In this document: piece after piece, positions 32,954 to 60,747 of the stretch | Layout: each line of letters opens with the position of its first letter | Position numbering within the stretch: the stretch's first letter is position 1 | NCBI GenBank assembly: GCA_016190755.1 | Contig: JACPPY010000054.1 | Coordinates: forward strand, 1-62,939 | DNA length: 62,939 nucleotides | DNA from: Chloroflexota bacterium | Lineage (GTDB): Bacteria; Chloroflexota; Dehalococcoidia; JACPPY01 | Direction of reading: 5' to 3' | The notes under the pieces: generated by a model | Seen by the model: only the letters and a program-made list of their open reading frames with translations | The model's database searches: none | What the model was told of the DNA's origin: nothing | Translations under genes and position numbers: made by a program

Positions 32954-34381
32954 CTACCGTGGCGTCAGAGATTCGATAAGCTGCCTCACGTTCTCGACGC
33001 TTTCCAAATCTTTGAGTAGGCCGACGGATTCACCAGCATTAACACCCTTTTGTGTGAGACTCGCATAATCCGCACACTCTCGGTATTTTTCAACTAGCTC
33101 ATCCCATTGGAGTGGCATTTCTGGGTATCCTTTAGCGATATTGCGTTTTTCATAAAACTTTCGACCATCTCTCAGTTTTATGGTCACCTTGCTTGCTCCC
33201 CATTTGGCATGGGTATGGGCGACCCCCTCTTCCCTTTTGAACTCGTCCTCTACTTCCGGATCGACTTCTACGTTGACCAACTTCAAAAAAGACTGGACAT
33301 CAGGTCTTCCTACCCGTTCGTCCGTATACTCTTGGAGCCCTGCTCTTCGATCCAGTATGGCTACCGCTATCCCATACCTACAGCTGTAGCGAGCATCCAA
33401 ACCGTTCTTTGGGCAACGGTAGAAGGCACCGATAGAGGCTATTGAGGAAGTAGCCCCCACCTCAACCCTTTCTACCTCCTCGGGTTTAATGTCATGCTTC
33501 TTCACCAGTTCCAGCGTAATATCTATTGGGACCGCCGGTGCTGTGGCCCCTGGATGCAGTTTTGTCGTCACATTCGGCAAAGCTAGGTCCCATCGAGTAC
33601 CGATTTCATCCACCATCCTGTCCAGATCATAGTTATTCTCCCCATTAAAGGTCGCGCAGAAACCGAAGTGGTCATGGCCGATACCTGGCACTCCTTCTAA
33701 GACATTTGTATCTGCGCTATAGCCCAGAGCTCCCAGTAGCGCGGCGATTACACCGTTCTTGGCTGCATTACCCGCGTGGAAAGGCTTGGTCATGGTGCCG
33801 ATATTCTTCCTTATACCTCCAGTCTCTGACGCGGCAATGCCTAAAGCGCACCGGGTTTTTCCCAGGTTCAGGTTCAGTAGCTTGCTGCATCCGATGGTCG
33901 CGCCGAAGCTACCCAATGTAGGGATAGGATGCCATCCCTTCAGTATGTGAAACGGCTGCACTCCCATGCTGATTCGTGCCTCCACCTCATAGCCCAATAT
34001 ATAGGCTTCCAATACCTGCTTGCCAGAGGCACCGAGATCATCAGCCATGGCCATTACGGCTGGAAGGACAACGGCGCTGATATGACTAATACCACTGATA
34101 CTTGTGTCGTCAAAGTCGAGGGCATGAGCTTCTACTCCGTTGACAAGAGCAGCGTTAGGCACAGATGTCCTCAGCTTGTGGCATAGAACACCAGCAGAAG
34201 GGCGCCCACCAATGTCTTTCACCAGGTCAAGAACGATGCCGGTGCATCTCTCTACTGAGCCGCCTATCATTACTCCCACTGTGTCCAGTATTCGTTCCTT
34301 GGCAACGGCCACGATCCCAGGAGGGATGTCGTTGTACGTCTTCTCCACCGCAAAACGAGCCAATGTTTCAGTTACTCCCAT
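32954..34381 (-). CDS. MmgE/PrpD-family protein (2-methylcitrate dehydratase-like), paralogue 1
   Basis: 475 aa. LARFAVEKTYNDIPPGIVAVAKERILDTVGVMIGG..., HALDFDDT and KPFHAGNAAKNGV are family motifs. Confidence 0.9.
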   Translation of the reverse strand: MGVTETLARFAVEKTYNDIPPGIVAVAKERILDTVGVMIGGSVERCTGIVLDLVKDIGGRPSAGVLCHKLRTSVPNAALVNGVEAHALDFDDTSISGISHISAVVLPAVMAMADDLGASGKQVLEAYILGYEVEARISMGVQPFHILKGWHPIPTLGSFGATIGCSKLLNLNLGKTRCALGIAASETGGIRKNIGTMTKPFHAGNAAKNGVIAALLGALGYSADTNVLEGVPGIGHDHFGFCATFNGENNYDLDRMVDEIGTRWDLALPNVTTKLHPGATAPAVPIDITLELVKKHDIKPEEVERVEVGATSSIASIGAFYRCPKNGLDARYSCRYGIAVAILDRRAGLQEYTDERVGRPDVQSFLKLVNVEVDPEVEDEFKREEGVAHTHAKWGASKVTIKLRDGRKFYEKRNIAKGYPEMPLQWDELVEKYRECADYASLTQKGVNAGESVGLLKDLESVENVRQLIESLTPR

Positions 34382-35281: not shown

Positions 35282-35702
35282 CCTGAACCTCCTGCGCAGC
35301 TTAGTTTTCGCAAATTTCTAGCCCATAGTACTATATAGTCGCTTCCAACACAAGGGGAATATCTCAACCCGCACATCAACCTTCATTGTCCCGGCTTCTT
35401 CTCTCTTAGACCGAATAGCCGACAGGAGGATCGGGCACCCGAAGCGGAAACCGGGCTCGGCTACCAGTGTGCACTTTCTCACTACAACATGTGTGTATCC
35501 AGAAATGCACCCATCGAGCCACTATATTGCAATGCAGCAACAATGATAACACGATTAACCGGCAGTAGTGGACGAGAGAGAAAAGTTATGATACAATCCG
35601 GTCAGCATCGTCGAGATTATTGTGGGCGATTACCTTCCTCGAGGAACCAACATGCTATTTGGCATCAGCCAAACACCTGACTTGCCAAGAAGGAGGAGGA
35701 TC

Positions 35703-36866
35703 ATGACGAGGACATTATGTGTAGCGGCTATTGTAACGGCTGTTGTAGTCGTATCTCTATCTGCATGTGGCAAACCGGCGCCCCAGCCTCCCCCGACTAC
35801 AGCCCCTGCACCCGCAGCCCCGTCTTCATCCCCAACGGCAGAGCCATCGCCAACAGCAAAACCAATATCCTCACCTTCGACCTGGCCCCTGGTCGACAGA
35901 CAGGCACAGGTTGAGGCCGCGGCCAAGAAGGAAGGGAAGGTTGTTCTCTGGTCACCTCACGCGAAACTTGCTCCACAATTTCTCGCCAAGTTCAAAGAGC
36001 GTTACCCCTGGTTGCAGCTAGAGACATGGGACGCTACAAGTACTGCCATCGTTGAGAAACTGGTTAGTGAGGCGAAGGTGGGCCGGTACAGTGTGGATGT
36101 GATAAGTGATGGAGAGCAGCAAGTCAGGTTGATTCCGAGAGATTTGCTGGCAAAGTATGATTGGCCTAACGCGGCAAAGTGGGCTTCGGAAGGGCTAGGG
36201 GGTACAGAGGGTTTCTACGTGCGCGACGTGATTGGCTTTTATGGCCCGGTCTACAACTCGAAGCTGGTCGTTGGCGCAGATATACCTAAGACCTGGAATG
36301 ATATCAAAGACCCAAAGTGGAAAGGCAAAACCTCCCTTGCCCTGGATGGCGACGAAGCACCTTTAATGCTAGCTGCCATGTGGGGTGGCAATGGGAAACT
36401 GGCATGGGAGGAGTCCTTTGCCTTCTGGCGAGAGGTGTCTAAGAACACTAAGCCAAAGACAGTGAAGGGATACACTGAGCCCACAAGGCTCCTCGGCGCC
36501 GGGGAATATGCGCTTTTTATCTGGGGGTCGTCTGGTGTCACTCTTCGAGCGCAAACAGATGGTGGGCTACCGGTAGCACATCCGCCGCTTGATCGTTTCC
36601 CAGGGACAGCGAAAGTGAAGACAATCTTGAAGAATGCGCCGCACCCCAATGCGGCACGGCTGCTTGTCGACTACATAACTTCGACCGAAGGATCAAGGAT
36701 CTACGCCGACGTTGTGGGTTATACTAGCCTCAATCCTGAAGCTGCCGGGGCATTGGCGAATCGCCGGTTTAAGGAGATTAAGGTTTACATAATGCCATCA
36801 GAGTTGGAAAGCACGGAAAACATGAAGAAATCCGCCGATTTCTGGGCCGCGCTGTTGGGTATATGA
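35703..36866 (+). CDS. ABC-transporter solute-binding lipoprotein (family 1, Fe3+/polyamine AfuA-PotD type), paralogue 1
   Basis: AGGAGGAGGA lies 3 nt before ATG 35703. MTRTLCVAAIVTAVVVVSLSACG lipobox, a P/A/T linker, then an SBP fold (VVLWSPH..., WKGK..., APHPNAARLLVDYITS). Confidence 0.88.
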   Translation: MTRTLCVAAIVTAVVVVSLSACGKPAPQPPPTTAPAPAAPSSSPTAEPSPTAKPISSPSTWPLVDRQAQVEAAAKKEGKVVLWSPHAKLAPQFLAKFKERYPWLQLETWDATSTAIVEKLVSEAKVGRYSVDVISDGEQQVRLIPRDLLAKYDWPNAAKWASEGLGGTEGFYVRDVIGFYGPVYNSKLVVGADIPKTWNDIKDPKWKGKTSLALDGDEAPLMLAAMWGGNGKLAWEESFAFWREVSKNTKPKTVKGYTEPTRLLGAGEYALFIWGSSGVTLRAQTDGGLPVAHPPLDRFPGTAKVKTILKNAPHPNAARLLVDYITSTEGSRIYADVVGYTSLNPEAAGALANRRFKEIKVYIMPSELESTENMKKSADFWAALLGI

Positions 36867-36916
36867 GAGGTGCGTCTTCTGAGTTGACAGGAACCAAACG
36901 ACATGGAGGAAGCAAA

Positions 36917-38335
36917 ATGACGACGACCGAAATTCTGTGTGATTTCTTGGTAGATACAGGTTATAGCGACATCCCAGGGGATGCTGTAAGAATAGCTAAG
37001 GAACGCATACTAGACACTGTAGGCGTGGCGCTTGCAGGAGCTGTCGAGCCGGCGGGTGCTGGCAGAATAGCAATAGAACTGGTAAAAGAGCTTGGCGGAT
37101 ACCCAACTTCTACGGTAATAGCAGGTGGCTTCAAAACATCTGCCCCTAATGCAGGGTTAGCCAATGGCACTGGTGCCGCTACTTTGGACTACGACGATAC
37201 CACCACTTATACAATCTGTCATTACAGCAGTTCTCTTATACCCGCCGTACTAGCACTAGCCGAAGAGACCAAGGTGTCGGGTAGGAAGCTTCTTGAGGCT
37301 TTCATCCTAGCCTGGGAAGCCGGAACTAGGATCGGTGAGTGTATGGGGGCCCCATCTTATTATCAGAGGGGCTTTCACACCCCCGGAACCTGGGCCTGCC
37401 TGGGCTGTGCCGCAGCCAGCGCAAAATTGCTGAATTGCAGTCGGGAACAGGTGAGGACAGCGCTGGCCGTTGCGGCCAGTGCGGCAGGCGGTATCAGGAA
37501 AACATATGGCACTAACACTAAGCCCTTGCACTCCGGCTATTCAGCAAGGAACGGAATCATAGCTGCGATGTTGGCCAAAAAGGGGTTTACTGCCGATAGG
37601 AATGTTCTGGACCGCGACCCCGAAGCCAAGGCTCACATGTGCTTTAGTTTCCCAGTAGTCTTTGCTGGAGAGGGGAATTACAACCTTAGCAAGGTAACTG
37701 AAGGGTTGGGTAAGTCATACAACTTAGTATCTAAGCCCATCGTCACAAAATTCCATCCAGGGCCAACTGCAATGGCACCCTTCATCGAGTTAGTGATAGA
37801 TATGATGAAGAGAAACTCGATCAGGGTTGACCAGGTTGAAAAGGTAGAGGTTAGAGCTATCCGTGAATGGGTCGAAGGCGTGTCACCCTTCTTGAGACCG
37901 CGGACAGGGGATGAAGCCAGATATAGTGCGCCCTATCAAATAGCTGTAGCGATGCTGGATGGCCAGGTTGGTATAGAGCAACACCGCGAAGAGCGTGTTC
38001 ATAGCTATGATGTCCAGGAGATGATGCAAAGGGTGCACCTTTCCGAGCTGAAGGGTAGTGAGGCGATCGTACGCAAACTAAGAGAGACTGCCAACATCGC
38101 CAAGATGGGTATTGGTGAATTGACCATCAAGCTTAAAGATGGACGGGAGTTTATTGGAAAAGTGGAACGGGGTCAGGGCTCATCGCCTCTCAAACGCCAA
38201 GATTTGCTTGCCAAGTATGAAGATTGTGCTAAGAGAGTGCTATCGTTGTCTGATGTAAAACGGTCAATCGAGTTAATTGAGAACCTGGAAAACCTGGACG
38301 ACGTTACCGAACTAATGGATCTACTTAGGGGATAA
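36917..38335 (+). CDS. MmgE/PrpD-family protein, paralogue 2
   Basis: GGAGGA lies 6 nt before ATG 36917. ILCDFLVDTGYSDIPGDAVRIAKERILDTVGVALAG..., TLDYDDT and KPLHSGYSARNGI. Confidence 0.9.
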   Translation: MTTTEILCDFLVDTGYSDIPGDAVRIAKERILDTVGVALAGAVEPAGAGRIAIELVKELGGYPTSTVIAGGFKTSAPNAGLANGTGAATLDYDDTTTYTICHYSSSLIPAVLALAEETKVSGRKLLEAFILAWEAGTRIGECMGAPSYYQRGFHTPGTWACLGCAAASAKLLNCSREQVRTALAVAASAAGGIRKTYGTNTKPLHSGYSARNGIIAAMLAKKGFTADRNVLDRDPEAKAHMCFSFPVVFAGEGNYNLSKVTEGLGKSYNLVSKPIVTKFHPGPTAMAPFIELVIDMMKRNSIRVDQVEKVEVRAIREWVEGVSPFLRPRTGDEARYSAPYQIAVAMLDGQVGIEQHREERVHSYDVQEMMQRVHLSELKGSEAIVRKLRETANIAKMGIGELTIKLKDGREFIGKVERGQGSSPLKRQDLLAKYEDCAKRVLSLSDVKRSIELIENLENLDDVTELMDLLRG

Positions 38336-38461
38336 ATTGAATGAATCCACTGTAACATATTCTAACCAAGTAGTACAGCGATTCAACCGCTATAGCTAGT
38401 CTCGGCAACACTGATAACACTATTAGCTCGACATGCTGACTTGCCAAGAAGGAGGAGGATT

Positions 38462-39649
38462 ATGACGAGGACGTTATATGTGGCGGCGATTGTAATGGCT
38501 GTTGTAGTCGTATCTCTATCTGCATGTGGCAAACCAGCGCCCCAGCCTCCCCCGACTACAGCCCCTGCACCCGCAGCCCCGTCTCCATCCCCAACGGCAA
38601 AGCCATCGCCAACCCCGCTCTCGCCGTCAACTTCGCCGTTGGTAAAACCATCTCCCTCATCTCCATCCCCAGTCGATAGACAGGCTCAGCTTGAGGCCGC
38701 GGCCAAGAAGGAAGGGAAGGTTGTTCTCTGGTCACCTCACGCGAAAATTGCTACAAAATTCCTCGCAAAATTTATGGAACGTTACCCCTGGTTGCAGCTA
38801 GAGACATGGGATGCTACAGGTACTGTCCTCATTGAAAAATTGGTAAGTGAGGCGAGGGTAGGCCGGCATAGCGTGGATGTGATGGCCATGGAAGAGCAGG
38901 GGGTCAGGCTGATTCCGAAGGATTTGCTGGCAAAGTATGACTGGCCTAGTGCGGCAAAGTATCCTTCAGAAGCGCTGGAGGGTACAGAGGGTTTGTACAT
39001 GCGGGACGCGCTGGCCTTCTACGGCCCGGTGTACAACACGAAGATAGTTCCCCCAACAAAGGCCCCACACTCGTGGCAGGACATGGCGGACCCAAAGTGG
39101 AAAGGCAAAACAGCTGTCCCTTTGGATGCCGACGAAGCACCTTTAATGCTAGCTGCCATGTGGGGCAGCAATGGGAAACTGGCATGGGAGGAGTCCTTTG
39201 CCTTCTGGCGAGAGGTGTCTAAGAACACTAAGCCAAAGACAGTGAAAGGATACAGCGAGCCCACAAGGCTCCTCGGCGCCGGGGAATACGAGCTTTTCCT
39301 CTGGGATGCGTCAAGTATCGCGCTTCAAGCGCAGTTAGCTGGGCTGCCGGTGGCGTTTGCCTCGGTTGATCGCTTCCCAGCGGCGGCGAGAATTAAGACA
39401 ATCTTGAAGAATGCGCCGCACCCCAATGCGGCACGACTGCTTGTCGACTACATAACTTCGACCGAAGGATCAAGGATCTACGCCGACGTTGGGGCTTACA
39501 TCAGTCTCAACCCTGAAGCTGCCGAGGCATTACTGAATCGCCAAATGAAAGAGACAGGCACCAAGCTTTATATAGTGCCCACCGAATTGGAAAGCATGGA
39601 GAATTTGAAGAAATCCGCCGATTTCTGGGCCGCGCTACTGGGTATATAA
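38462..39649 (+). CDS. ABC-transporter solute-binding lipoprotein, paralogue 2 (mosaic near-identity to paralogue 1)
   Basis: Same RBS, signal peptide and lipobox as paralogue 1 (MTRTLYVAAIVMAVVVVSLSACG). Long nucleotide blocks are nearly identical to 35680-36720. Confidence 0.88.
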   Translation: MTRTLYVAAIVMAVVVVSLSACGKPAPQPPPTTAPAPAAPSPSPTAKPSPTPLSPSTSPLVKPSPSSPSPVDRQAQLEAAAKKEGKVVLWSPHAKIATKFLAKFMERYPWLQLETWDATGTVLIEKLVSEARVGRHSVDVMAMEEQGVRLIPKDLLAKYDWPSAAKYPSEALEGTEGLYMRDALAFYGPVYNTKIVPPTKAPHSWQDMADPKWKGKTAVPLDADEAPLMLAAMWGSNGKLAWEESFAFWREVSKNTKPKTVKGYSEPTRLLGAGEYELFLWDASSIALQAQLAGLPVAFASVDRFPAAARIKTILKNAPHPNAARLLVDYITSTEGSRIYADVGAYISLNPEAAEALLNRQMKETGTKLYIVPTELESMENLKKSADFWAALLGI

Positions 39650-39778
39650 ATCAGGAACTGAGCAATGCAGGAAGTATGTTCCTACCTCATGGTGCTGTAC
39701 CATATAGTGCTGTGGTTGTGATGGTAACGGTAGGATAGGAGAGGGCCCGCCCTCGGCCACGCTGGGGGTGAAATCGAG

Positions 39779-41524
39779 TTGGAGCCAGCGAGTTTGAGCA
39801 CACGGTTCTTGGATGCCTGCCGTGCCCTAAAGCAAAGGGGGCGCGAGAGGTGTGTCTTCTTAGTGATAGGTTTGCCCCTGGTATTCCTCGTTGTCGTGCC
39901 GCTGTTTCTATTGGTACTCAATAGTTTCCGAGATATCGGCTTTGGTGAGGTTGCGGTCGCTCTCAACAAGTTCACTCTGGATAACTATATCACTGCCTAC
40001 ATGAACCCGAGGACATGGAGGATGCTGGGGAACAGCATCGTCTTTGCCGTTGGCTCGATGGTTGTTGCTTTCGTATTGGGTGGTGTAATGGCGTTCCTCG
40101 CGGAGCGGACCGACTCTCCCTTCCGACGTTTCACCTACGCACTAATGTTCATGCCACTCATCATACCAGGAATGCTGCAGGCGGTAGCCTGGGTTCTCCT
40201 ATTGAGCCCCAGTATTGGTCTGGTGAACAAGCTGTGGTCTGCCATCGGATTCGGCACCCCTCTCCTTAATGCCTACAGCATGCCGGTGATGTGGTGGGTG
40301 CAGGGCGTCATTTTGGCGCCTCTCACCTTTATCATGCTCGGAGCGGCCTTTCGCCGGATGGACCCTGCCCTGGAGGAAGCCGCCATCACCTGCGGTGCGC
40401 CACTGAGCAGGGTGGCAACACAGGTTACTCTCAAGGTCATCCTGCCGGCGATTGTTGGCGTGGCCCTGCTCCAGTTTGTGCGGGCCCTCGAAGCTTTGGA
40501 GGTGCCCTTGCTACTGGGTCTTAGCGGAGACGTTATGGTGTTTAGCGCCAACATCCTGCTTTCAATAACGATGAGGTTCCCGCCAGCGTATGGCCTCGGT
40601 TTTACCTATTCCATAACCCTTATCAGTCTCACTGTCTTCGGACTTTTCGTCTATCAGAGGGTGGTGCGAAGAGGCGAGAGATATGCAGTAGTCACCGGCA
40701 AGGGATATCGCCCTCGTATTATTAAACTTGGCAGATGGAAGGCACTTGCAGTTGGTTTCCAGATATTCTTCGCGGTCGTCGCCATCGGCCTTCCGGTCCT
40801 CGTGTTGCTGTGGGCCTCACTACTGCCCGCCTATCAGGCTCCCTCAATGGAGATGCTGTCCAAGGTCAGCCTCAAGAATTACTCCATGGTATTCGATCGT
40901 CCCGACATGCTGCATATGCTCCAAAATACTGCCTTATTGGCGGGTGTCGTTAGTGTCTGTGTCATGTTCCTGGCCCTCTTGCTCTCATGGGTCATTTTCC
41001 ATATGAAGATAAAGGGATCTGGCTTTCTTGACAGCCTAGCTTTCATCCCTTACGCCATACCCTCAGTCGTCACGGGCATTGCCTTCATGGTACTGTTCCT
41101 TGCCTTCCCTAACCCTGTGTACGGAACCATCTGGATCCTGGTGATCGCCTATATCGTAGTTGAGCTGCCCTACGGCACCCGTTTTACCCATGCCGGTCTC
41201 TTGCAGGTCCATAAGGAGATGGAGGAGGCAGGCAAGATCTCTGGCGCGAGCTTCTGGAGAGTGTTCTTCCATGTCATCGTGCCGATTATGAAGCCTTCGC
41301 TTACTGGCGGTGGGCTATATGTATTCATCATATCTGTCAAGTACTTTTCCATAGCCGCCATCCTGTCGTCGTCTCAAAGTATCGTGCTCTCTGTGCAAAT
41401 CTGGCAACTGTGGAACGAAGGTGGGCTGGGGGCGTTAGCGGCTTTGGCCATAATCATGATCGCAGGGCTTAGCGTTCTCACGCTACTGGGAGGGGTGCAC
41501 AGAATAGAACGGATTGTTGGCTAA
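39779..41524 (+). CDS. Fused double ABC-transporter permease (2 x BPD_transp_1, FbpB/AfuB type), paralogue 1
   Basis: 581 aa with about 12 TM segments and two EAA-like loops (RRMDPALEEAAITCGA; VHKEMEEAGKISGAS). Confidence 0.9.
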   Translation: MEPASLSTRFLDACRALKQRGRERCVFLVIGLPLVFLVVVPLFLLVLNSFRDIGFGEVAVALNKFTLDNYITAYMNPRTWRMLGNSIVFAVGSMVVAFVLGGVMAFLAERTDSPFRRFTYALMFMPLIIPGMLQAVAWVLLLSPSIGLVNKLWSAIGFGTPLLNAYSMPVMWWVQGVILAPLTFIMLGAAFRRMDPALEEAAITCGAPLSRVATQVTLKVILPAIVGVALLQFVRALEALEVPLLLGLSGDVMVFSANILLSITMRFPPAYGLGFTYSITLISLTVFGLFVYQRVVRRGERYAVVTGKGYRPRIIKLGRWKALAVGFQIFFAVVAIGLPVLVLLWASLLPAYQAPSMEMLSKVSLKNYSMVFDRPDMLHMLQNTALLAGVVSVCVMFLALLLSWVIFHMKIKGSGFLDSLAFIPYAIPSVVTGIAFMVLFLAFPNPVYGTIWILVIAYIVVELPYGTRFTHAGLLQVHKEMEEAGKISGASFWRVFFHVIVPIMKPSLTGGGLYVFIISVKYFSIAAILSSSQSIVLSVQIWQLWNEGGLGALAALAIIMIAGLSVLTLLGGVHRIERIVG

Positions 41525-41577
41525 GCATCCCTGTGCCAGAGCCATTCGCCGACGGCCATGGTGCCTGGATCTGGGAG

Positions 41578-41611
41578 AAAGGCGCAAAAAATCAACCGCC
41601 TTTTTGAATTT
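41578..41611 (+). terminator. Candidate intrinsic terminator after permease 1
   Basis: AAAGGCG-caaaaaatcaac-CGCCTTT followed by TTGAATTT. Confidence 0.45.
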
Positions 41612-41837
41612 GCGATTTACGGCTTAATATCAAGGCGACTACCACCGAAATCCTGCAAAATCCCGCAATAAGAACAATCGTTCCCTCAAAGCTCTCACAA
41701 AATGTTTTGCGGTAAGTTCCCTCCCATTGCACTCGGCCTTTCCAGAAAGTTGTGCTCGTCAAAGCAGAGTAATTGAGTTAGGGCATTTGTCGCCATCATG
41801 CTGGGTGACTGTTTGTGACTTTAGCGGAATTATGTAC

Positions 41838-41866
41838 TTGACAGCAGTTCATTTTTTGGTTACCAT
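41838..41866 (+). promoter_or_regulatory. Candidate sigma-70-type promoter for the selenoprotein operon
   Basis: TTGACA - 17 nt (T-rich) - TACCAT. It sits in the only AT-rich stretch of the cluster, about 140 nt upstream of ATG 42008. The same TTTTTG(G)TTACCAT architecture occurs upstream of thrS. Confidence 0.45.
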
Positions 41867-42007
41867 CAAGACACTAAACGACTTATTGTCCTAATGATGG
41901 AACCCCAGGAACGCAGCATAGGGCGATTTGCTGTTTATGCGTCAGGATTGCGGAACAAATGTGTTAGCCATCATAAGACTGCATTAGCTATATGAGGAGG
42001 ATTGTCT

Positions 42008-42562
42008 ATGTGCGAAGCAGCTGTGACTTTGGTGAACCCAGTTGGGCATCCCCGCAATGAGGACCCAATAAAAGAGGTTGCGTGGCCAGTAGACCTGAGC
42101 CATAAGACAGTGATCTTGATCGACAACACCAAGCCGAAGGCTGACCTAATACTTGAATTGTTCGCAGGGGCCATTCAGGAGCATTTCCCCGGAGTGCGAG
42201 TGATCCACAGGCGAAAATCTGGCGCGGTTTCCCCAGCACCATTCCTGCATGAACTGAATGGCATGGCCGACCTAGCCATCAATGCAGTGGCGGATTGAGG
42301 GGGCTGCACAACGTGGAGTGTCCACGACGCAGTCAAGTTACGTCAGCGGGGAATTCCAGCGGTGGTTGTCTGTAGCCATGACTTCAGCGCCCTGGCACGA
42401 AGCGTGGCACGGGCCTGTGGTGTCGATGACCCTCGACTGGTTATCCTGCCCCACCCGCTTGGCTCTCTCCCTGACCAGGCCATAAAGACCATAATAAGAC
42501 GCGGACATGACGAGATCATGTCTGTGCTTACCGGTAAGAAGAGATACACGGAGGTGGCGTAA
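42008..42562 (+). CDS. Candidate selenoprotein, UxxC (U-G-G-C) motif, UGSC-family-like; in-frame TGA at 42296-42298 read as Sec
   Basis: ORFs 42002..42298 and 42362..42562 share a frame, and the 63 nt between them carry no stop. The joined product is ...MADLAINAVAD-U-GGCTTWSVHDAVKLRQRGIPAVVVCSHDF...RLVILPHPLG.... GAGGAGG lies 8 nt before ATG 42008. A SECIS-like hairpin follows the TGA. Confidence 0.65.
42304..42332 (+). other. Candidate bacterial SECIS hairpin
   Basis: CUGC-ACAA-CGUGGA-GUG-UCCACG-AC-GCAG. It starts 6 nt after the UGA. The apical GUG loop is 22 nt from the U of the UGA. Confidence 0.5.
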
Positions 42563-43647
42563 TGGCTGTGGCCGATGAAATCGTAGTGTCTGGGTCTTAC
42601 GATGCGATCTACGAATTCTGTCTGCAACAGGGGTGGACTGACGGCCTTCCTGTTGTACCGCCGACACGCGAACGAGTGGGTGCTATGCTTGAGTGGACTG
42701 ACAGGGATGCCGATGAAGTGGTCGGTTCTATCCCGCCACTCAATGGCCATGCAAGCATACGAAAGATCGCTGCAAACGCAGTGATGGCAGGATGTCGTCC
42801 CAATTATCTGCCTGTTGTTATTACTGCGGTGGAAGCCCTGTTGGACAAGGGGTTCAATCTGGACGCCGTGCAGCCGACAACTGGACCAATAACACAATTG
42901 GTAATCGTCAATGGACCCGTCGCCCGAGAGTTGGGCATCAATGCTGGGACAACGGCCTTCGGCCCGGGATGGCGCAGTAACGCCACCATTGGTCGAGCCA
43001 TACGGTTGATCCTCGTGAACATTGGTGGCGCGAAACCCGGCGAGGTGAATCAAAAGACCCAAGGGCAGCCGGGCATGTTCAGCTTGTGTGCTGCCGAAAA
43101 TGAGGCCCGCAGCCCCTGGGAACCGTTCCATGTCGAACATGGCATTCCAGCGGAACACAGCGCAGTGACCGTCTTTGCCACATTCCCTGGATATGACATC
43201 CACGAGGGGGAAACAGCAAACGATATCTTGACAAACCTCTCTCGTGAGACTGGGGGCATGACACGTAAGCTTGTCAACGGAGGGGAGCATGTTGTCGCAC
43301 TATGCCCGGAACACGCTCAGATCCTAGCAAGTGCAGGCTTTTCAAAGCAGCAGGTAAAAGAATTCCTTTGGCAGCATGCTGGAGCTCCCCTGGCTCACCT
43401 TGTGCCATATTTCCAGCGACTTGCTCGCCTACGGCGGGCAAATGTATTTCAAGTAGAAAGCGGAGACGACACCTGGCTGCCTATTGCCGATCGACCGGAC
43501 CAGATCCATGTGATTGTGGTTGGTGGAACGTCGCGTCACTCGACCTATTTCCCCTGCTTCAGCTACTCTCGGTTTGCATCTAGGCGCATCACAAATCATT
43601 GTGGCCAGGCCATTCGCTCAGTCAAGGATCTGTTCCGGAACAGCTGA
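42562..43647 (+). CDS. Uncharacterised conserved-looking protein, translationally coupled to the selenoprotein gene
   Basis: 361-aa ORF. Its ATG overlaps the upstream TAA (TAATG). Motif-like stretches: GWTDGLPVVPPT, AANAVMAGCRPNYLPVV, QPTTGPITQLVIVNGP, FGPGWRSNATIGRAIRL, CAAENEARSPWEPFHVEHG. I cannot assign a family. Confidence 0.8.
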   Translation: MAVADEIVVSGSYDAIYEFCLQQGWTDGLPVVPPTRERVGAMLEWTDRDADEVVGSIPPLNGHASIRKIAANAVMAGCRPNYLPVVITAVEALLDKGFNLDAVQPTTGPITQLVIVNGPVARELGINAGTTAFGPGWRSNATIGRAIRLILVNIGGAKPGEVNQKTQGQPGMFSLCAAENEARSPWEPFHVEHGIPAEHSAVTVFATFPGYDIHEGETANDILTNLSRETGGMTRKLVNGGEHVVALCPEHAQILASAGFSKQQVKEFLWQHAGAPLAHLVPYFQRLARLRRANVFQVESGDDTWLPIADRPDQIHVIVVGGTSRHSTYFPCFSYSRFASRRITNHCGQAIRSVKDLFRNS

Positions 43648-43751
43648 AAGTAGGTCGTATTTCTACGTATTTCTATAGAACCAAGGGAGATGTTCCATAA
43701 GTCAAGCATCTATAACGATATCTAGCGAATAATATTCGCAAGGAGGATCAA

Positions 43752-44945
43752 ATGGAAAGGAAAAGGCTGTCAGTCCTGGTCGCCCTTGTTCTACCGGCTC
43801 TGGTTTTGTTCGCGTCGTCTTCCATAGTCGCTTGCTCTAGCTCAACTACACCACGACCGTCTTCGTCCTCGACGGCGCAACCATCGGCCATACCTTCATC
43901 TTCACCGTCGCCAACAGTCAAGCCATCACCTCTGCCCTCGCCTTCGGCCTCACCTTCACCGACAGTGAATCGGCAGGAGCAGCTTGAAGCTGCTGCCAAG
44001 AAAGAAGGGGCTGTCACGTTCTGGGCAACTTATGCGACAGAGGCGAACAAATATCTCGCACCATTCAAGGAGCGTTACCCCTGGCTAAAAGTGGAAGTCT
44101 GGCAGTCTACGAATGCGCCCATCGTCGACAAAATGCTTGCTGAGGCCAAGGCAAGTAAGTATAGCGTGGATGTCTTTGGCTTAGCTGAAGAAACTGCGGT
44201 GCAAGTCCCAGCCAGTTTCTATGCCAAGTATGATTGGCCTAGTGCGGCGAAATGGCCTGCCGAGACGCGGCAACAAGAGGGGTTGTACCTGCGCACGACT
44301 GTCAACGCGCAGGGCCCGGTTTATAATACAAAGGCAGTTCCCGCGGCGGAGATCCCGAAAACCTGGGAGGACATGGCAAACCCGAGATGGAAGGGGAGAA
44401 CCGTCGTTTCCCTTGAGACTGACGAAGCCGTACTGGTACTAGCCGCCATGTGGGGGGAAGGAAAGGAAGGGAAGCTGGACTGGGACAGGGCCTTGAGCTT
44501 CTGGCAGAACTTCTTCAAGAACACTCAGCCGAAGACTGGGTCGGGATTTACAACTCCAACCAAGCTCATGGTCGCCGGGGAATACGATCTCTTCCCATAT
44601 GGCTCGGTCAATGCGGCAGTGAGGATGAAGGCGACCGAAGGGTCACCGCTAGGGTTTATTCCTGTTCAGTATCCGGCAAGACCGTCCGTGCTGGCAATTG
44701 CCAAGGATGCTCCTCATCCTAATGCGGCAAGGCTATTGGCCGACTACATGACTTCGGACGAAGGAAGTGTGCTGTTCTCAAATACTATGTATATGGCTTC
44801 CCTTAGTCCGGCTGCTGAAAACTCGATACCCCTCCGTATGTACGCTGAGATGGGTCTGAAGCGTTACATATTGCCTGCGGCCTTGATGACTGCCGAGAAT
44901 ACGAAGAAATCTGGCGAGTTATGGAAGAAACTACTCGGTGTCTAG
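43752..44945 (+). CDS. ABC-transporter solute-binding lipoprotein, paralogue 3 (more divergent)
   Basis: AAGGAGGA lies before ATG 43752. Lipobox IVAC, an S/P-rich linker, and the same fold landmarks as paralogues 1 and 2 (ERYPWL.VE.W, YDWPSAAKW, WKG(K/R)T, APHPNAARLL.DY.TS). Confidence 0.88.
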   Translation: MERKRLSVLVALVLPALVLFASSSIVACSSSTTPRPSSSSTAQPSAIPSSSPSPTVKPSPLPSPSASPSPTVNRQEQLEAAAKKEGAVTFWATYATEANKYLAPFKERYPWLKVEVWQSTNAPIVDKMLAEAKASKYSVDVFGLAEETAVQVPASFYAKYDWPSAAKWPAETRQQEGLYLRTTVNAQGPVYNTKAVPAAEIPKTWEDMANPRWKGRTVVSLETDEAVLVLAAMWGEGKEGKLDWDRALSFWQNFFKNTQPKTGSGFTTPTKLMVAGEYDLFPYGSVNAAVRMKATEGSPLGFIPVQYPARPSVLAIAKDAPHPNAARLLADYMTSDEGSVLFSNTMYMASLSPAAENSIPLRMYAEMGLKRYILPAALMTAENTKKSGELWKKLLGV

Positions 44946-45063
44946 TAGGAGTCGAGATAGACTGACTGCAGGGTGATGTCTCCACAGACGCAAGTCCTGA
45001 GTGGCTTGAGAGGGCTCATACATGTGGTTTCGCACCTTGAAGACCGCCCATCATTTGGGGGGC

Positions 45064-46800
45064 ATGAATTTATCTGCCCGTTTCCTGCATGGTTACGGTA
45101 CCCTGAAGCGGAGTAAGGGTGAAGTCTCCATACTTGTCGTTGCCGGGGCTTTTTTGGGAGTCTTCGTCGTATTCCCTCTCCTGTTGCTGGTACTCAACAG
45201 CTTCCGGGATATCGGTTTGGGTGAAATTGGGCTTGCCTTTGACAAGCTTACCTTAGGAAACTATTCCATCGCCTACATGAACCCAAGAACGTGGAAAATG
45301 CTGTGGGATAGCCTTGTCTTTGCCGGTGGTGCCGCGGTTGTCGCTTTCTTGCTGGGTGGTGGCATGGCATTTATTACCGAGCGGACTAATGCTCCCTTCC
45401 GGCACCTCACCTACGGGTTGATGTTCGTGCCCCTCATCGTTCCGGGAATGCTGCTCTCTATAGGCTGGATCTTCCTGCTCAGCCCGAAAATCGGCCTGCT
45501 AAACAAGGCGTGGATGTCGATCGGGTTTCATACACCTTTTTTGGACGTCTACAGTATGCCTGTGATGTGGTGGATCCAAGGAGTAATGGAGTCTCCGCTT
45601 ACGTTTCTTATGCTGGGTGCCGCTTTTAGGCGCATGGATCCGTCCCTGGAAGAAGCCGCTATTGCTTGTGGAACCTCGAGAGTTAATTGTGCCATTAGGA
45701 TAACGCTGAAGCTAATGCTTCCGGCAATCGCAGGGGTGGCTCTCCTCCAGTTTGTACGTGGTCTTGAAGCTATGGAGGTGCCGCTGATTCTTGGCCTCAA
45801 TTCCGGTATCAAGGTATTCAGTGTTAACATTTTGCTCTCGCTTCAGGAGGTCTCACCGCCTGACTATGCTCTCGGCTTTACCTACGGCATAAGCCTGATC
45901 TGCCTTACTGTTGCGGGGCTCTTCATTTATCTCAGGATGATGAGACAATCCGAGAAGTATGTAGTTGTAACAGGCAAGGGATATAGGCCGGGGATTATTA
46001 ACCTCGGCAAATGGAAGTTTGCGGCAGCGGGTTTCCAGATCTTCTTCGGAGTCGCGGCAATAGGGCTTCCTCTTCTGGTATTGATCTGGGTCTCACTACT
46101 GCGTAGCTACGAGGTTCCCTCGATAGAGATGTTGTCCCAGATGAATCTGGATAAGTACACGTCAATAATTGGTCGGCCCGGGATGACGTCCGTGATTCTG
46201 AACACTGTTGTAGTAGCGGCCATTGCCAGCGTCTGTGTCATGTTCTTATCAATCCTGCTTTCCTGGATCGTTTTCCATATGAAGATAAAGGGGGGTGCGA
46301 TTCTTGACGGATTGGCTTTTATTCCCTATGCCATACCCTCAATAGCTATGGCTATTGCTTTCATGGTTCTGTTCCTTTCCTTCAGGAACCCGATCTACGG
46401 CACCATCTGGATTTTAGTAATAGCGTACGTCATACGCTTCATGCCCTACGGCACGCGCTTCACCCATGCCGGCCTGTTGCAGATCAAGAAGGAGTTGGAG
46501 GAAGTAGCTCTCACGGCTGGCGCGAGTTACTGGAAAATGTTCCTCCGTATCATCATCCCTATTATGAAACCCTCGCTTGTCGGGGGTGGTCTGTATGTGT
46601 TCATTCTGTCTGTGAAGATTTTCCCCATTGCCGCTCTCCTCTCGTCGCCCAACAGTAAGGTGCTTGCGGTAGAAATCTGGCAAATGTGGAATGTGGGAAT
46701 GTTTGGGGAGGTTTCTGCTCTCGCTGTGATGATGATCGGGGGTCTGAGCATTCTCACCCTTCTGGTTGGAACACGGACGCTGGGCCAGATTACAGGCTAG
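45064..46800 (+). CDS. Fused double ABC-transporter permease, paralogue 2
   Basis: Aligns along its length with 39779..41524 (MNLSARFL... versus MEPASLSTRFL...). GGGGGG lies before ATG 45064. The track start at 45022 is the alternative. Confidence 0.9.
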   Translation: MNLSARFLHGYGTLKRSKGEVSILVVAGAFLGVFVVFPLLLLVLNSFRDIGLGEIGLAFDKLTLGNYSIAYMNPRTWKMLWDSLVFAGGAAVVAFLLGGGMAFITERTNAPFRHLTYGLMFVPLIVPGMLLSIGWIFLLSPKIGLLNKAWMSIGFHTPFLDVYSMPVMWWIQGVMESPLTFLMLGAAFRRMDPSLEEAAIACGTSRVNCAIRITLKLMLPAIAGVALLQFVRGLEAMEVPLILGLNSGIKVFSVNILLSLQEVSPPDYALGFTYGISLICLTVAGLFIYLRMMRQSEKYVVVTGKGYRPGIINLGKWKFAAAGFQIFFGVAAIGLPLLVLIWVSLLRSYEVPSIEMLSQMNLDKYTSIIGRPGMTSVILNTVVVAAIASVCVMFLSILLSWIVFHMKIKGGAILDGLAFIPYAIPSIAMAIAFMVLFLSFRNPIYGTIWILVIAYVIRFMPYGTRFTHAGLLQIKKELEEVALTAGASYWKMFLRIIIPIMKPSLVGGGLYVFILSVKIFPIAALLSSPNSKVLAVEIWQMWNVGMFGEVSALAVMMIGGLSILTLLVGTRTLGQITG

Positions 46801-47330: not shown

Positions 47331-47648
47331 ATGGCCATATACGAGTACATCTGTCCCAAATGCAGCAACGAGTTTGAGCTGATGAGGCCTATGAGCCAGT
47401 CGAGCGAACCGGCGACCTGTCCCAGGTGCAAGTCGCGGGCACAGAAACGTATATCTTCCTTCGGCTCCAAGACAGGCTTCTACCTAAAGGTGCCCGAGAA
47501 GGCGCCATTCCGCCCGAAGGTAGGCGCTTCCAAGAAGGTTAGCACTGCGACGAAGGCGAGCACCGCAAGCAAGGCGGCTTCTGCCCGCAAAGCCAGCACA
47601 GCGAAGAAAGCCAGTGCTGGAGGTAAAGCCAAAGCCGCCAAGAAGTAG
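47331..47648 (+). CDS. FmdB-family zinc-ribbon protein with a Lys/Ala-rich histone-H1-like C-terminal tail
   Basis: MAIYEYICPKCSNEFELMRPMS...ATCPRCKS (CxxC...CxxC), then KKVSTATKASTASKAASARKASTAKKASAGGKAKAAKK. Confidence 0.85.
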   Translation: MAIYEYICPKCSNEFELMRPMSQSSEPATCPRCKSRAQKRISSFGSKTGFYLKVPEKAPFRPKVGASKKVSTATKASTASKAASARKASTAKKASAGGKAKAAKK

Positions 47649-47651
47649 GGC

Positions 47652-48038
47652 GTGAGCATATTTGTTGTCCACGAGCACCATGCTACCCATCTGCATTGGG
47701 ACTTCCGCCTGGAGATGGAGGGGGTGCTGAAAAGCTGGGCCGTACCGAAAGGCCCTCCTACAGCAGCCGGAGTCAGGCGCCTGGCGGTGCAAGTGGAGGA
47801 CCATCCGTTGGACTATGCCTCCTTTTCAGGTGTGATACCGGAAGGGTCGTACGGCGCTGGCAAGGTAGAGATCTGGGACCAGGGCAACTACGACCTTCTG
47901 GCGCGTGACCCTGACCGGCTGCTGTTCATACTCCGGGGACGCAAATTAAAAGGCAGCTACGTGCTTGTGCATACGAGCGGCAAGAACTGGATAATGTTGA
48001 AGAGAAGGGCAAGGCAGCATGATAACCAGATTAGCTAA
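47652..48038 (+). CDS. Stand-alone LigD-type 3'-phosphoesterase (PE) domain protein
   Basis: FVVHEHHATHLHWDFRLEMEGVLKSWAVPKGPP...RLAVQVEDHPLDYASFSGVIPEGSYGAGKVEIWDQG is the LigD PE signature. GTG start 3 nt after the previous stop. Confidence 0.85.
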   Translation: MSIFVVHEHHATHLHWDFRLEMEGVLKSWAVPKGPPTAAGVRRLAVQVEDHPLDYASFSGVIPEGSYGAGKVEIWDQGNYDLLARDPDRLLFILRGRKLKGSYVLVHTSGKNWIMLKRRARQHDNQIS

Positions 48039-59304: not shown

Positions 59305-60450
59305 TCATGCCTGGCAGCGGGACTCCGCCAGCCCCTTTTCCAGTGTGCAAAGCTTCAAGAGCCGGGCTATCTCGAAGGGGTCGGAGGAGATGACGGGGCT
59401 GGCGTACAGCTCCATGGTGCCGATATCGCAGGATGGGCTCTTCGGCTGGCCGCGGTCAACCACACGCGCCATCGCCGGGAACCCCTCCCAGCTTTCCTCG
59501 GTGGGCGCAATAGGGGGTGTGACCACCATCAGGTTGAAAGAGGTAACATTCATCATGTCCCTCAGGCAGGAGATGGCATCGTAGACCCCGTCTTTGAAAT
59601 AGTCGTCGTACCGCTGGGAGAGCACCATGATTTCCTTCTCTTTTACCGGTGTCAGGTAGGAGAACAGGCGCACTCCATTGCGTTCGACGGTAAGTCCCAG
59701 CGTGTCGTGTATTTCCACCAGGTCGTCGAAGTAAGAGCTGCCGTGTCTTTCCTTGTAGGCCAAAGCCGCCCGGCGCAGGGCCTCGATCTTAGGGTAATGG
59801 CTGCCTACGCCCAGCGTCATCTGTGCATGACCGTGCAGCAGGCTTGCTCCCGCCCTCCTTAGGCAGTTCCAGATGAATAGGTAGTACTTCGCCTCCGGTT
59901 CGTACTCGTGGGCCTTCTGCGCCCACTTCCAGGCGGTATCCAGGTAATCGTGCACCTGCTCCCGCTCGAAGGCCAGCGGGTTTGGGCTATCGAAAATGAC
60001 CAATCCGTGCAGACCATCGTACTTGGCCACGTTGCTCGCGGTGATGCAGTACTTGCCGCGTATGCGCCCGAAGGGGTCTGCCGGGGTAAGTTTAAGCGGG
60101 TCATGCAGCGGGTCGGTCTTGGAGCTGTCGATGATGGAAGCCTGTATGCTCAGCTTCTCGTACATGTCTATGGGGCGCGAAGCCCTTATGCTGTTATAGA
60201 GCGCACCTTCGAAGGTGACCATGTTGGTGATCTTCGTCACCTTCTGCTCGACGACGCTGTCCACCGAGCCGAACTGCTGGCCTATCCAGGATATCATCTC
60301 CGGCGGCGGGTCCAGGTAACCCATAACCGCGATTATATGGAAGATGCGGTTGAAAAGCGCCTTTCCTTCCGGGGACAGGGCTTCGACGATCTCATACAGG
60401 TCCGCTATGCCGGTGCAGACTATCCGAGGCGGTAGTTTCTCAACTTCCAA
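59305..60450 (-). CDS. GalT-like HIT-superfamily nucleotidyltransferase/phosphorylase (HxHxQ motif)
   Basis: NSIRASRPID, FIWNCLRRAGASLLHGHAQM and the C-terminal DIGTMELYASPVISSDPFEIARLLK follow the motif order of the galactose-1-phosphate uridylyltransferase fold. I preferred TTG 60450 (GGAG 6 nt upstream). The track start ATG 60579 adds 43 odd residues. Confidence 0.75.
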   Translation of the reverse strand: MEVEKLPPRIVCTGIADLYEIVEALSPEGKALFNRIFHIIAVMGYLDPPPEMISWIGQQFGSVDSVVEQKVTKITNMVTFEGALYNSIRASRPIDMYEKLSIQASIIDSSKTDPLHDPLKLTPADPFGRIRGKYCITASNVAKYDGLHGLVIFDSPNPLAFEREQVHDYLDTAWKWAQKAHEYEPEAKYYLFIWNCLRRAGASLLHGHAQMTLGVGSHYPKIEALRRAALAYKERHGSSYFDDLVEIHDTLGLTVERNGVRLFSYLTPVKEKEIMVLSQRYDDYFKDGVYDAISCLRDMMNVTSFNLMVVTPPIAPTEESWEGFPAMARVVDRGQPKSPSCDIGTMELYASPVISSDPFEIARLLKLCTLEKGLAESRCQA

Positions 60451-60747
60451 CTTCGACTCCGAAACACCTGAACTGCATGATACAGACGAAAGCGGCAAGC
60501 GATTCTTTAGAGCTAGTATAACAGAAACGACTGGAGGGATATCGCCGCGCCTGACATTGACGTTTGCGCAGGTGCACATGCCGAGGGACCAAAAACAGAG
60601 GCAACCCGAATCGAAATACGGGCTGCCTCTGTAAGCGAAATACTCTTACTTACCGCCGGTCGCCACCATGTATCTGGCGGCTGTCAGATGTTCTTGCTGG
60701 AACCAAGCAGGGCCGCTACCTCCTGGCCGTCATAGTCTGAAAGACGC

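Follow-up and report, generated by a model that had tools for sequence, protein, structure and literature searches.

Two small open reading frames (ORFs) that lie in one frame on either side of a TGA pose the question of whether they are the pieces of a broken gene, two separate genes or a single gene in which UGA is read as selenocysteine (Sec). They are located in a 62,939-nt stretch of DNA (in the following, the window) from an uncultured Chloroflexota bacterium, and the initial annotation, made from the letters alone, had joined them into one gene of 184 codons. Indeed, the frame that begins with the ATG at 42008 on the forward strand was found to be open, past the TGA at 42296-42298, up to the TAA at 42560-42562; the 63 nt at 42299-42361, in front of the GTG at 42362 where ORF calling begins the C-terminal piece, contain no stop. 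The gene (42008-42562) has 184 codons including Sec97, and the motif around the TGA is A-D-U-G-G-C-T-T-W, in which two residues separate the U from a Cys (TGC, 42305-42307; C100), the putative resolving Cys of a U-x-x-C pair, exactly as had been read before. A Shine-Dalgarno-like GAGGAGG (41994-42000, + strand) was read from the sequence 7 nt 5' of the ATG, and a consensus scan gave a candidate sigma-70-type promoter (TTGACA-17-TACCAT) 5' of the operon (41838-41866, + strand), although the count of such matches was not above the shuffled expectation. At the 3' end, the TAA overlaps the ATG of the ORF at 42562-43647 (in the following, the partner gene) as TAATG.

When the TGA was translated as Cys, the joined protein matched the Pfam model PF24696 (UGSC) with 135.2 bits versus a cutoff of 25, and the match ran end to end, residues 8-175 being aligned to profile positions 2-171/172. 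When the halves were scanned separately against this model, the N-terminal half covered positions 2-92 (37 bits) and the C-terminal half positions 94-171 (77 bits); they are collinear and, since the one ends at 92 and the other starts at 94, the TGA is profile column 93. The NCBIfam model NF041046, 'UGSC family (seleno)protein', gave 123.7 bits (E = 6e-36, again with Cys substituted for Sec), which is 1.3 bits below its curated equivalog cutoff of 125. A family of this name had been proposed in the initial annotation, and it does exist: the 'UGSC-containing protein' of Zhang & Gladyshev (PMC1976440, PMC2398784) was first noted in 2007 (PMC1976440), stood out in the GOS metagenomes, where 255 Sec forms were counted versus 21 Cys forms (PMC2398784), and is still given without a function in a review of 2026 (PMC13188914). 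The two small ORFs are one gene that encodes a selenocysteine-containing protein of the UGSC family, and the annotation is thereby corrected from two fragments to one selenoprotein.

Homologues were collected by an exhaustive HMMER scan with the exact C-terminal half as query. The 400 matches fell into three groups by length: full-length proteins (170-215 aa), longer proteins (535-564 aa) and about 40 fragments (66-110 aa) whose start lies just past the TGA column. Judged by their start, the fragments are what would be expected for truncated Sec forms. Splitting or truncation by gene callers had been anticipated and was observed, with the 66-aa C-terminal ORF stored as a separate protein-library entry (P0001) and the orthologue at locus L242 called as a 95-aa fragment. 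Homologues aligned continuously across the TGA, as had been predicted, with Cys at this column in 97 of about 110 sequences that span it; in an alignment of 41 sequences (A1), C97 and C100 were invariant and G98 nearly so. Conservation in the family is highest in the stretch encoded by the 21 codons after the TGA, where C100, D107 and G115 are invariant; it is thus present past the TGA, where the initial annotation had considered that it might be missing. The window protein is divergent, with at most about 47% identity to any relative found. A word-indexed homology search with the joined protein gave no match, and a search of PDB sequences gave no credible one. The third motif residue of the window protein is Gly, where Ser is usual in the family. 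The motif had been described as a U-G-G-C variant, which is correct, but it is not special: Gly at this position was found in 8 of 123 distinct Sec-form relatives among the matches listed, and U-G-G-C is a known minority variant of the UGSC family. The family is known, the window gene is a new divergent member of it, and the rescue of its annotation is correct but ordinary.

A hand-built, degenerate DNA pattern, [G/A]-D-TGA-G-x-C-[S/T]-[S/T]-W-x3-D, was run on about 185,000 species genomes and found at least 120 loci with TGA, versus about 4 expected by chance according to our own estimate. All of the 124 matches listed are true UGSC homologues whose BLAST alignments to the window protein span the TGA, and the frame past the TGA is open in them for about 80 or about 440-480 codons. 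The loci listed belong to Proteobacteria, Chloroflexota, Acidimicrobiia, Rokubacteria, Binatia, Acidobacteriota and Bacillaceae; no Cys-form paralogue was found at the Sec-form loci among these matches. The control set comprised 117 confirmed Cys-form (TGY) homologues from metagenomes, 116 of which entered the hairpin comparison. Sec forms have the consensus hairpin (G)UCGUGGA-GUN-UCCACGA(C), with the loop at +23..+25 (U of UGA = +1). Five or more contiguous pairs closing this 3-nt loop were present in 109 of the 124 Sec forms among the matches listed but in only 3 of 116 Cys forms, and the loop starts with GU in 112 of the 124 Sec forms listed, a start that is absent from the eight commonest Cys-form loops. 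Ser at +7, after the Trp, was encoded by AGT in all Sec forms with Ser there (98/98 among the matches listed) but in none of 13 Cys forms, which all use AGC; in Cys forms, Leu and Val dominate this position. Thr at +4 was encoded by ACG in 89 of 103 Sec forms among the matches listed versus 21 of 77 Cys forms. The upper stem was about 95% paired in an alignment of 125 sequences (123 distinct) among the matches listed, with compensatory changes from G-C to A-U at pairs 24/36 (8 sequences) and 21/39 (5 sequences) and from A-U to G-C at pair 28/32 (4 sequences). Hairpin and AGT at +7 together are a simple DNA-level signature that parts Sec-type from Cys-type UGSC genes. The three hairpin-bearing genes among the 116 Cys forms (L122-L241) retain 7-8 bp at +15..+33 and may be recent Sec-to-Cys conversions.

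In the window gene, folding, the bacterial SECIS (bSECIS) model, the family hairpin core and a codon likelihood all pointed to a SECIS hairpin at 42302-42334 (+ strand). It is composed of a lower stem GGCUGC/GCAGUC (42302-42307/42329-42334), an upper stem CGUGGA/UCCACG (42312-42317/42321-42326) and the apical loop GUG (42318-42320) at +23..+25 from the U of UGA; the codons ACA ACG UGG AGU GUC CAC GAC give CGUGGA-GUG-UCCACG at the same offset as in the family. The upper stem has only 6 bp versus 8 bp in most relatives, because residue +5 is Thr (ACG) instead of the usual Ser (UCG). Elements of the bSECIS type are described to have a loop of 3-9 nt with a G within the first two positions, an upper stem of 4-16 bp, a distance of 16-37 nt from the UGA and a minimum free energy (MFE) of -7.5 kcal/mol or lower (PMC13188914); the window hairpin lies within all four ranges, with a loop of 3 nt and G first, 6 bp, a spacing of 19 nt and an MFE of -16.3 kcal/mol. 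Synonymous recodings (n = 5,000) had a mean MFE of -11.0 ± 2.5 (sd) kcal/mol, less negative than that of the window hairpin (p = 0.025). For an 81-nt stretch, the fold z-score versus dinucleotide shuffles was -0.26 and not significant, and the synonymous-recoding control and the Sec-versus-Cys comparison were used in place of it. Since some of the residues encoded by the hairpin are conserved, constraints on the RNA are hard to separate from those on the protein; this was addressed by the Cys-form control and by a score of synonymous choices only. The position-specific codon likelihood after the UGA favoured the Sec type over the Cys type by 18.4 bits, where Sec forms among the matches listed had a median of 18.0 and Cys forms a maximum of 6.8 bits, and synonymous choices alone still favoured the Sec type by 13.3 bits. 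Like the fdhF-type SECIS of E. coli, the hairpin directly follows the UGA within the ORF and fits the published consensus model, and the apical loop of fdhF also starts with G-U at about +23/+24. The sequence of the window hairpin with its 3-nt loop is, however, unrelated to that of fdhF, and the UGSC hairpin is family-specific and embedded in the conserved peptide T-S/T-W-S-V-H-D. Rfam, which may lack a bacterial SECIS model, gave no match in the window.

The nearest relative of the partner protein with retrievable DNA (L242, 63% identical) is preceded by a UGSC gene in which the position of the TGA and the core of the hairpin are as in the window and which ends with a normal stop; a sense codon in closely related genes, as considered in the initial annotation, was not encountered there. 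The two UGSC proteins are about 46% identical, 46% upstream and 47% downstream of the TGA, and at 22 identical residues downstream the codons differ. The equal identity before and after the TGA and these codon differences show selection on the translated product. The protein of a paralogue in a Chloroflexi MAG (L058) is only 32% identical to that of the window, yet a stretch of 38 nt that starts at the TGA and runs through the hairpin is identical (L058 3713-3772, window 42296-42333). UGSC genes of the Sec form occur at least five times in this MAG (JACPQD01), and three of them stand in tandem fusion modules on one contig (L079). The only other contig with sequence identical to the window (L001) ends short of the TGA; an exact-sequence lookup found the window partner protein elsewhere only on a 1.3-kb contig, and P0152 had no exact-sequence record. 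A UGSC gene with a bacterial-type SECIS within the ORF was also seen in a MAG whose label is that of an archaeon, Candidatus Nitrosocosmicus (L007, 5412-5471). Archaeal SECIS elements are usually located in the 3' UTR and, therefore, this contig is probably a bacterial contamination of the archaeal bin.

A search for the Sec-decoding machinery revealed no selA, selB, selD or tRNA-Sec in the 63-kb window, which contains no tRNA at all. Further selenoprotein candidates in the window were not found by a crude codon-usage screen for TGA-interrupted genes, which flagged only pairs of neighbouring genes or of other short ORFs that share a frame; this screen is insensitive, since the UGSC gene itself was not flagged. 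The machinery is found beside the gene in a Burkholderiales MAG (L013, 1561-7702), where selA and selB are followed by the gene for a TrxB-like flavoprotein reductase, then by tRNA-Sec, the gene for a TctC binding protein and, last in the row, a UGSC gene of the Sec form. SelB homologues were located near three Sec-form loci among the matches listed and near no Cys-form locus. Genes for TrxB-like proteins were found near 15 Sec-form loci among the matches listed versus one Cys-form locus, which suggests a dedicated reductant, but the enrichment may also reflect taxonomy (mostly Alpha- and Betaproteobacteria). A UGSC selenoprotein in the window implies that its uncultured Chloroflexota host decodes selenocysteine.

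The window gene could also be a plain nonsense pseudogene, in which the TGC or TGT of a Cys form was mutated to TGA and only an N-terminal fragment of 96 residues is made. One base change would suffice for this, and the Sec machinery is missing from the window. On the other hand, the codons past the TGA are of the Sec type with a score that no Cys form reaches, the AGT at +7 was seen in none of them, the SECIS hairpin is present, the 87 downstream codons are intact and still give 77 bits with the family profile, and the translational coupling to the partner gene is preserved. In the approximately 46% identical orthologue L242, the TGA and the hairpin are also retained and the protein is conserved to an equal degree before and after the TGA, which makes a pseudogene very unlikely. 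Even less probable are two small proteins of 96 and 66 aa, made by a stop at the TGA and a restart at the GTG at 42362: both pieces are ORFs with start codons and the shorter one is present in protein databases, but the 21 codons in between would be left untranslated although they are the most conserved part of the family.

An error in sequencing or assembly, with TGC or TGT as the true codon, comes to mind because the window is a single assembly and the identical contig L001 stops before the TGA; it is hardly conceivable in view of the Sec-specific codons and the hairpin around the TGA, which cannot come from a one-base error, and of the independently assembled relative that has a TGA at the same place. 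Insertion of an amino acid other than Sec, be it Trp or Cys by a near-cognate tRNA or by genome-wide reassignment of UGA, is known in some bacteria. In the window, however, TGA is the ordinary stop of 10 of the 31 long ORFs, which shows that the genetic code is standard and the genome not recoded; besides, the geometry of the hairpin and its GU loop match SelB-dependent SECIS elements, and relatives have selA, selB and tRNA-Sec beside the gene, leaving a minimal chance for such a read-through. Compared to these explanations, a genuine UGSC selenoprotein gene that is decoded through its SECIS element is very probable.

The partner gene (42562-43647, + strand) encodes a protein of 361 aa that belongs to an unannotated family and was matched by neither a Pfam nor an NCBIfam model. 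Its homologues number at least 7,986 and are all named hypothetical. Where the flanking DNA was long enough, the family was fused or adjacent to UGSC at 114 of 116 Sec-form loci among the matches listed and at 91 of 92 Cys-form loci. In the Sec forms among the matches listed, the partner was fused to UGSC in 42 cases, located directly downstream in 61, found elsewhere in the locus (usually just upstream) in 11 and absent in 2, with 8 contigs too short to place it; the corresponding numbers for Cys forms are 46, 39, 6, 1 and 25. UGSC is, thus, almost never found without one specific partner from a family of several thousand hypotheticals. Natural UGSC-partner fusions include P0003, P0031 and P0074, and the fusion domain that Zhang & Gladyshev named 'Unknown_1' in 2008 is probably this partner. 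Cys78 and Cys176 of the partner are nearly invariant; Glu179, His190, Glu250 and His326 are invariant. An AlphaFold model of the window partner alone had a pLDDT of 89.9, but a fold search with it revealed no convincing solved relative; class-I fumarate hydratase (TM 0.25-0.29) and RidA-like repeats were all weak matches. Pfam, NCBIfam and the fold search revealed neither a PrdA/GrdE-like (pyruvoyl) nor any other recognisable domain in the partner.

For the structure of the UGSC protein, natural Cys-form homologues were used. The AlphaFold model of a natural Cys-form fusion had a pLDDT of 93.8 and a pTM of 0.93. In the Cys-form model, the Cys equivalent to U sits between a strand (99-105) and a helix (108-123) of a domain with alternating strands and helices (alpha/beta), in agreement with the strand-to-helix junction that had been predicted for the U in the initial annotation. 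Matches of the modelled domain to folds in the PDB were weak and comprised the flavodoxin-like proteins MdaB, NQO1 and flavodiiron proteins; a viral structure library gave nothing useful. A thioredoxin fold, suggested for UGSC in 2008, was rejected, as no thioredoxin-fold protein was matched in the PDB and the domain is flavodoxin-like, albeit by weak matches.

A lead to the chemistry came from the selenoprotein B models of Stickland reductases (GrdB, GrdF, GrdH and PrdB; PF07355, TIGR01917/01918). Among 41 UGSC members, 24 matched TIGR01917 (GrdB), with a best E-value of 2.6e-5; further weak matches were obtained with GrdF (17), TIGR01918 (14), GrdH (6) and PrdB (3). Residues 90-154 of the window protein (42275-42469), around the Sec, aligned to positions 339-398 of the GrdB profile. 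This similarity around the Sec is weak but recurrent. GrdB and PrdB are both UxxC selenoproteins and, like UGSC, proteins of this type work with a second subunit that is separately encoded or fused. The Sec of PrdB attacks a carbon of the substrate, and the U151C variant is inactive (PMC11229817). There are also clear differences: the scores are far below the family cutoffs, with 11.6 bits for the window protein versus a family cutoff of 602.2 and the best UGSC member also far under it, and only about 60 residues are similar. Furthermore, the window partner is no pyruvoyl protein like PrdA or GrdE, and the window genes are found in a Chloroflexota host among solute-transporter genes and not in a grd/prd operon.

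[quoted passage not shown] The product would be a protein of 184 residues with a Sec97-Gly-Gly-Cys100 pair, placed, according to the Cys-form homologue model, at the strand-helix junction of the flavodoxin-like alpha/beta domain. Together with the product of the translationally coupled partner gene it would form a two-part enzyme, in which a small substrate bound to the partner subunit may be acted upon by Sec97, either as nucleophile or as redox centre; Cys100 may then resolve the intermediate to a selenenyl-sulfide, which would be re-reduced by a thiol or by a flavoprotein disulfide reductase. This chemistry of Sec97 and Cys100, drawn by analogy to the Sec-x-x-Cys loop of the GrdB/PrdB reductases, is the likeliest one for the pair, but it is a tentative proposal of low confidence. 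It is likewise conceivable, though doubtful, that UGSC and its partner are a widespread two-part selenoenzyme with a GrdB/PrdB-like Sec-x-x-Cys loop on a flavodoxin-like domain, the partner as catalytic subunit that holds the substrate, and recycling by a TrxB-like protein, with the breakdown of imported organic acids or amines as its task. If true, the Stickland reductases would have a new counterpart in the aerobic world. A chemistry like that of GrdB/PrdB, together with a TrxB-like reductant, offers a testable lead for one of the most abundant selenoprotein families without an assigned function in aquatic and soil metagenomes; this lead, the near-obligate partner family and the DNA signature of the Sec type are the most valuable by-products of the analysis.

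The window is ordinary chromosome with recA, dnaK, secA, thrS, pheST and glnA, and its SecA is 66-77% identical to proteins of named Chloroflexota/Dehalococcoidia MAGs. Genes for solute-binding proteins, dehydrogenases and CoA-transferases make up most of the neighbours of Sec-form modules. Around the UGSC operon of the window, genes for solute-binding proteins are located at 35622-36866, 38441-39649 and 43752-44945, and genes for long permeases with double transmembrane domains at 39779-41524 and 45022-46800; an ABC ATPase gene was not seen near the operon (35622-46800). A gene of the MmgE/PrpD family is located at 36863-38335 and a second one on the reverse strand at 32954-34381. Two long ORFs on the reverse strand, at 574-2877 (767 aa) and 59305-60579 (424 aa), had no Pfam match. 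Further downstream of the operon, a small protein with a zinc ribbon (CxxC...CxxC) and a tail rich in Lys and Ala (47331-47648) was identified by eye only, as was the ORF of 128 aa that follows it (47652-48038) and resembles the 3'-phosphoesterase domain of LigD.
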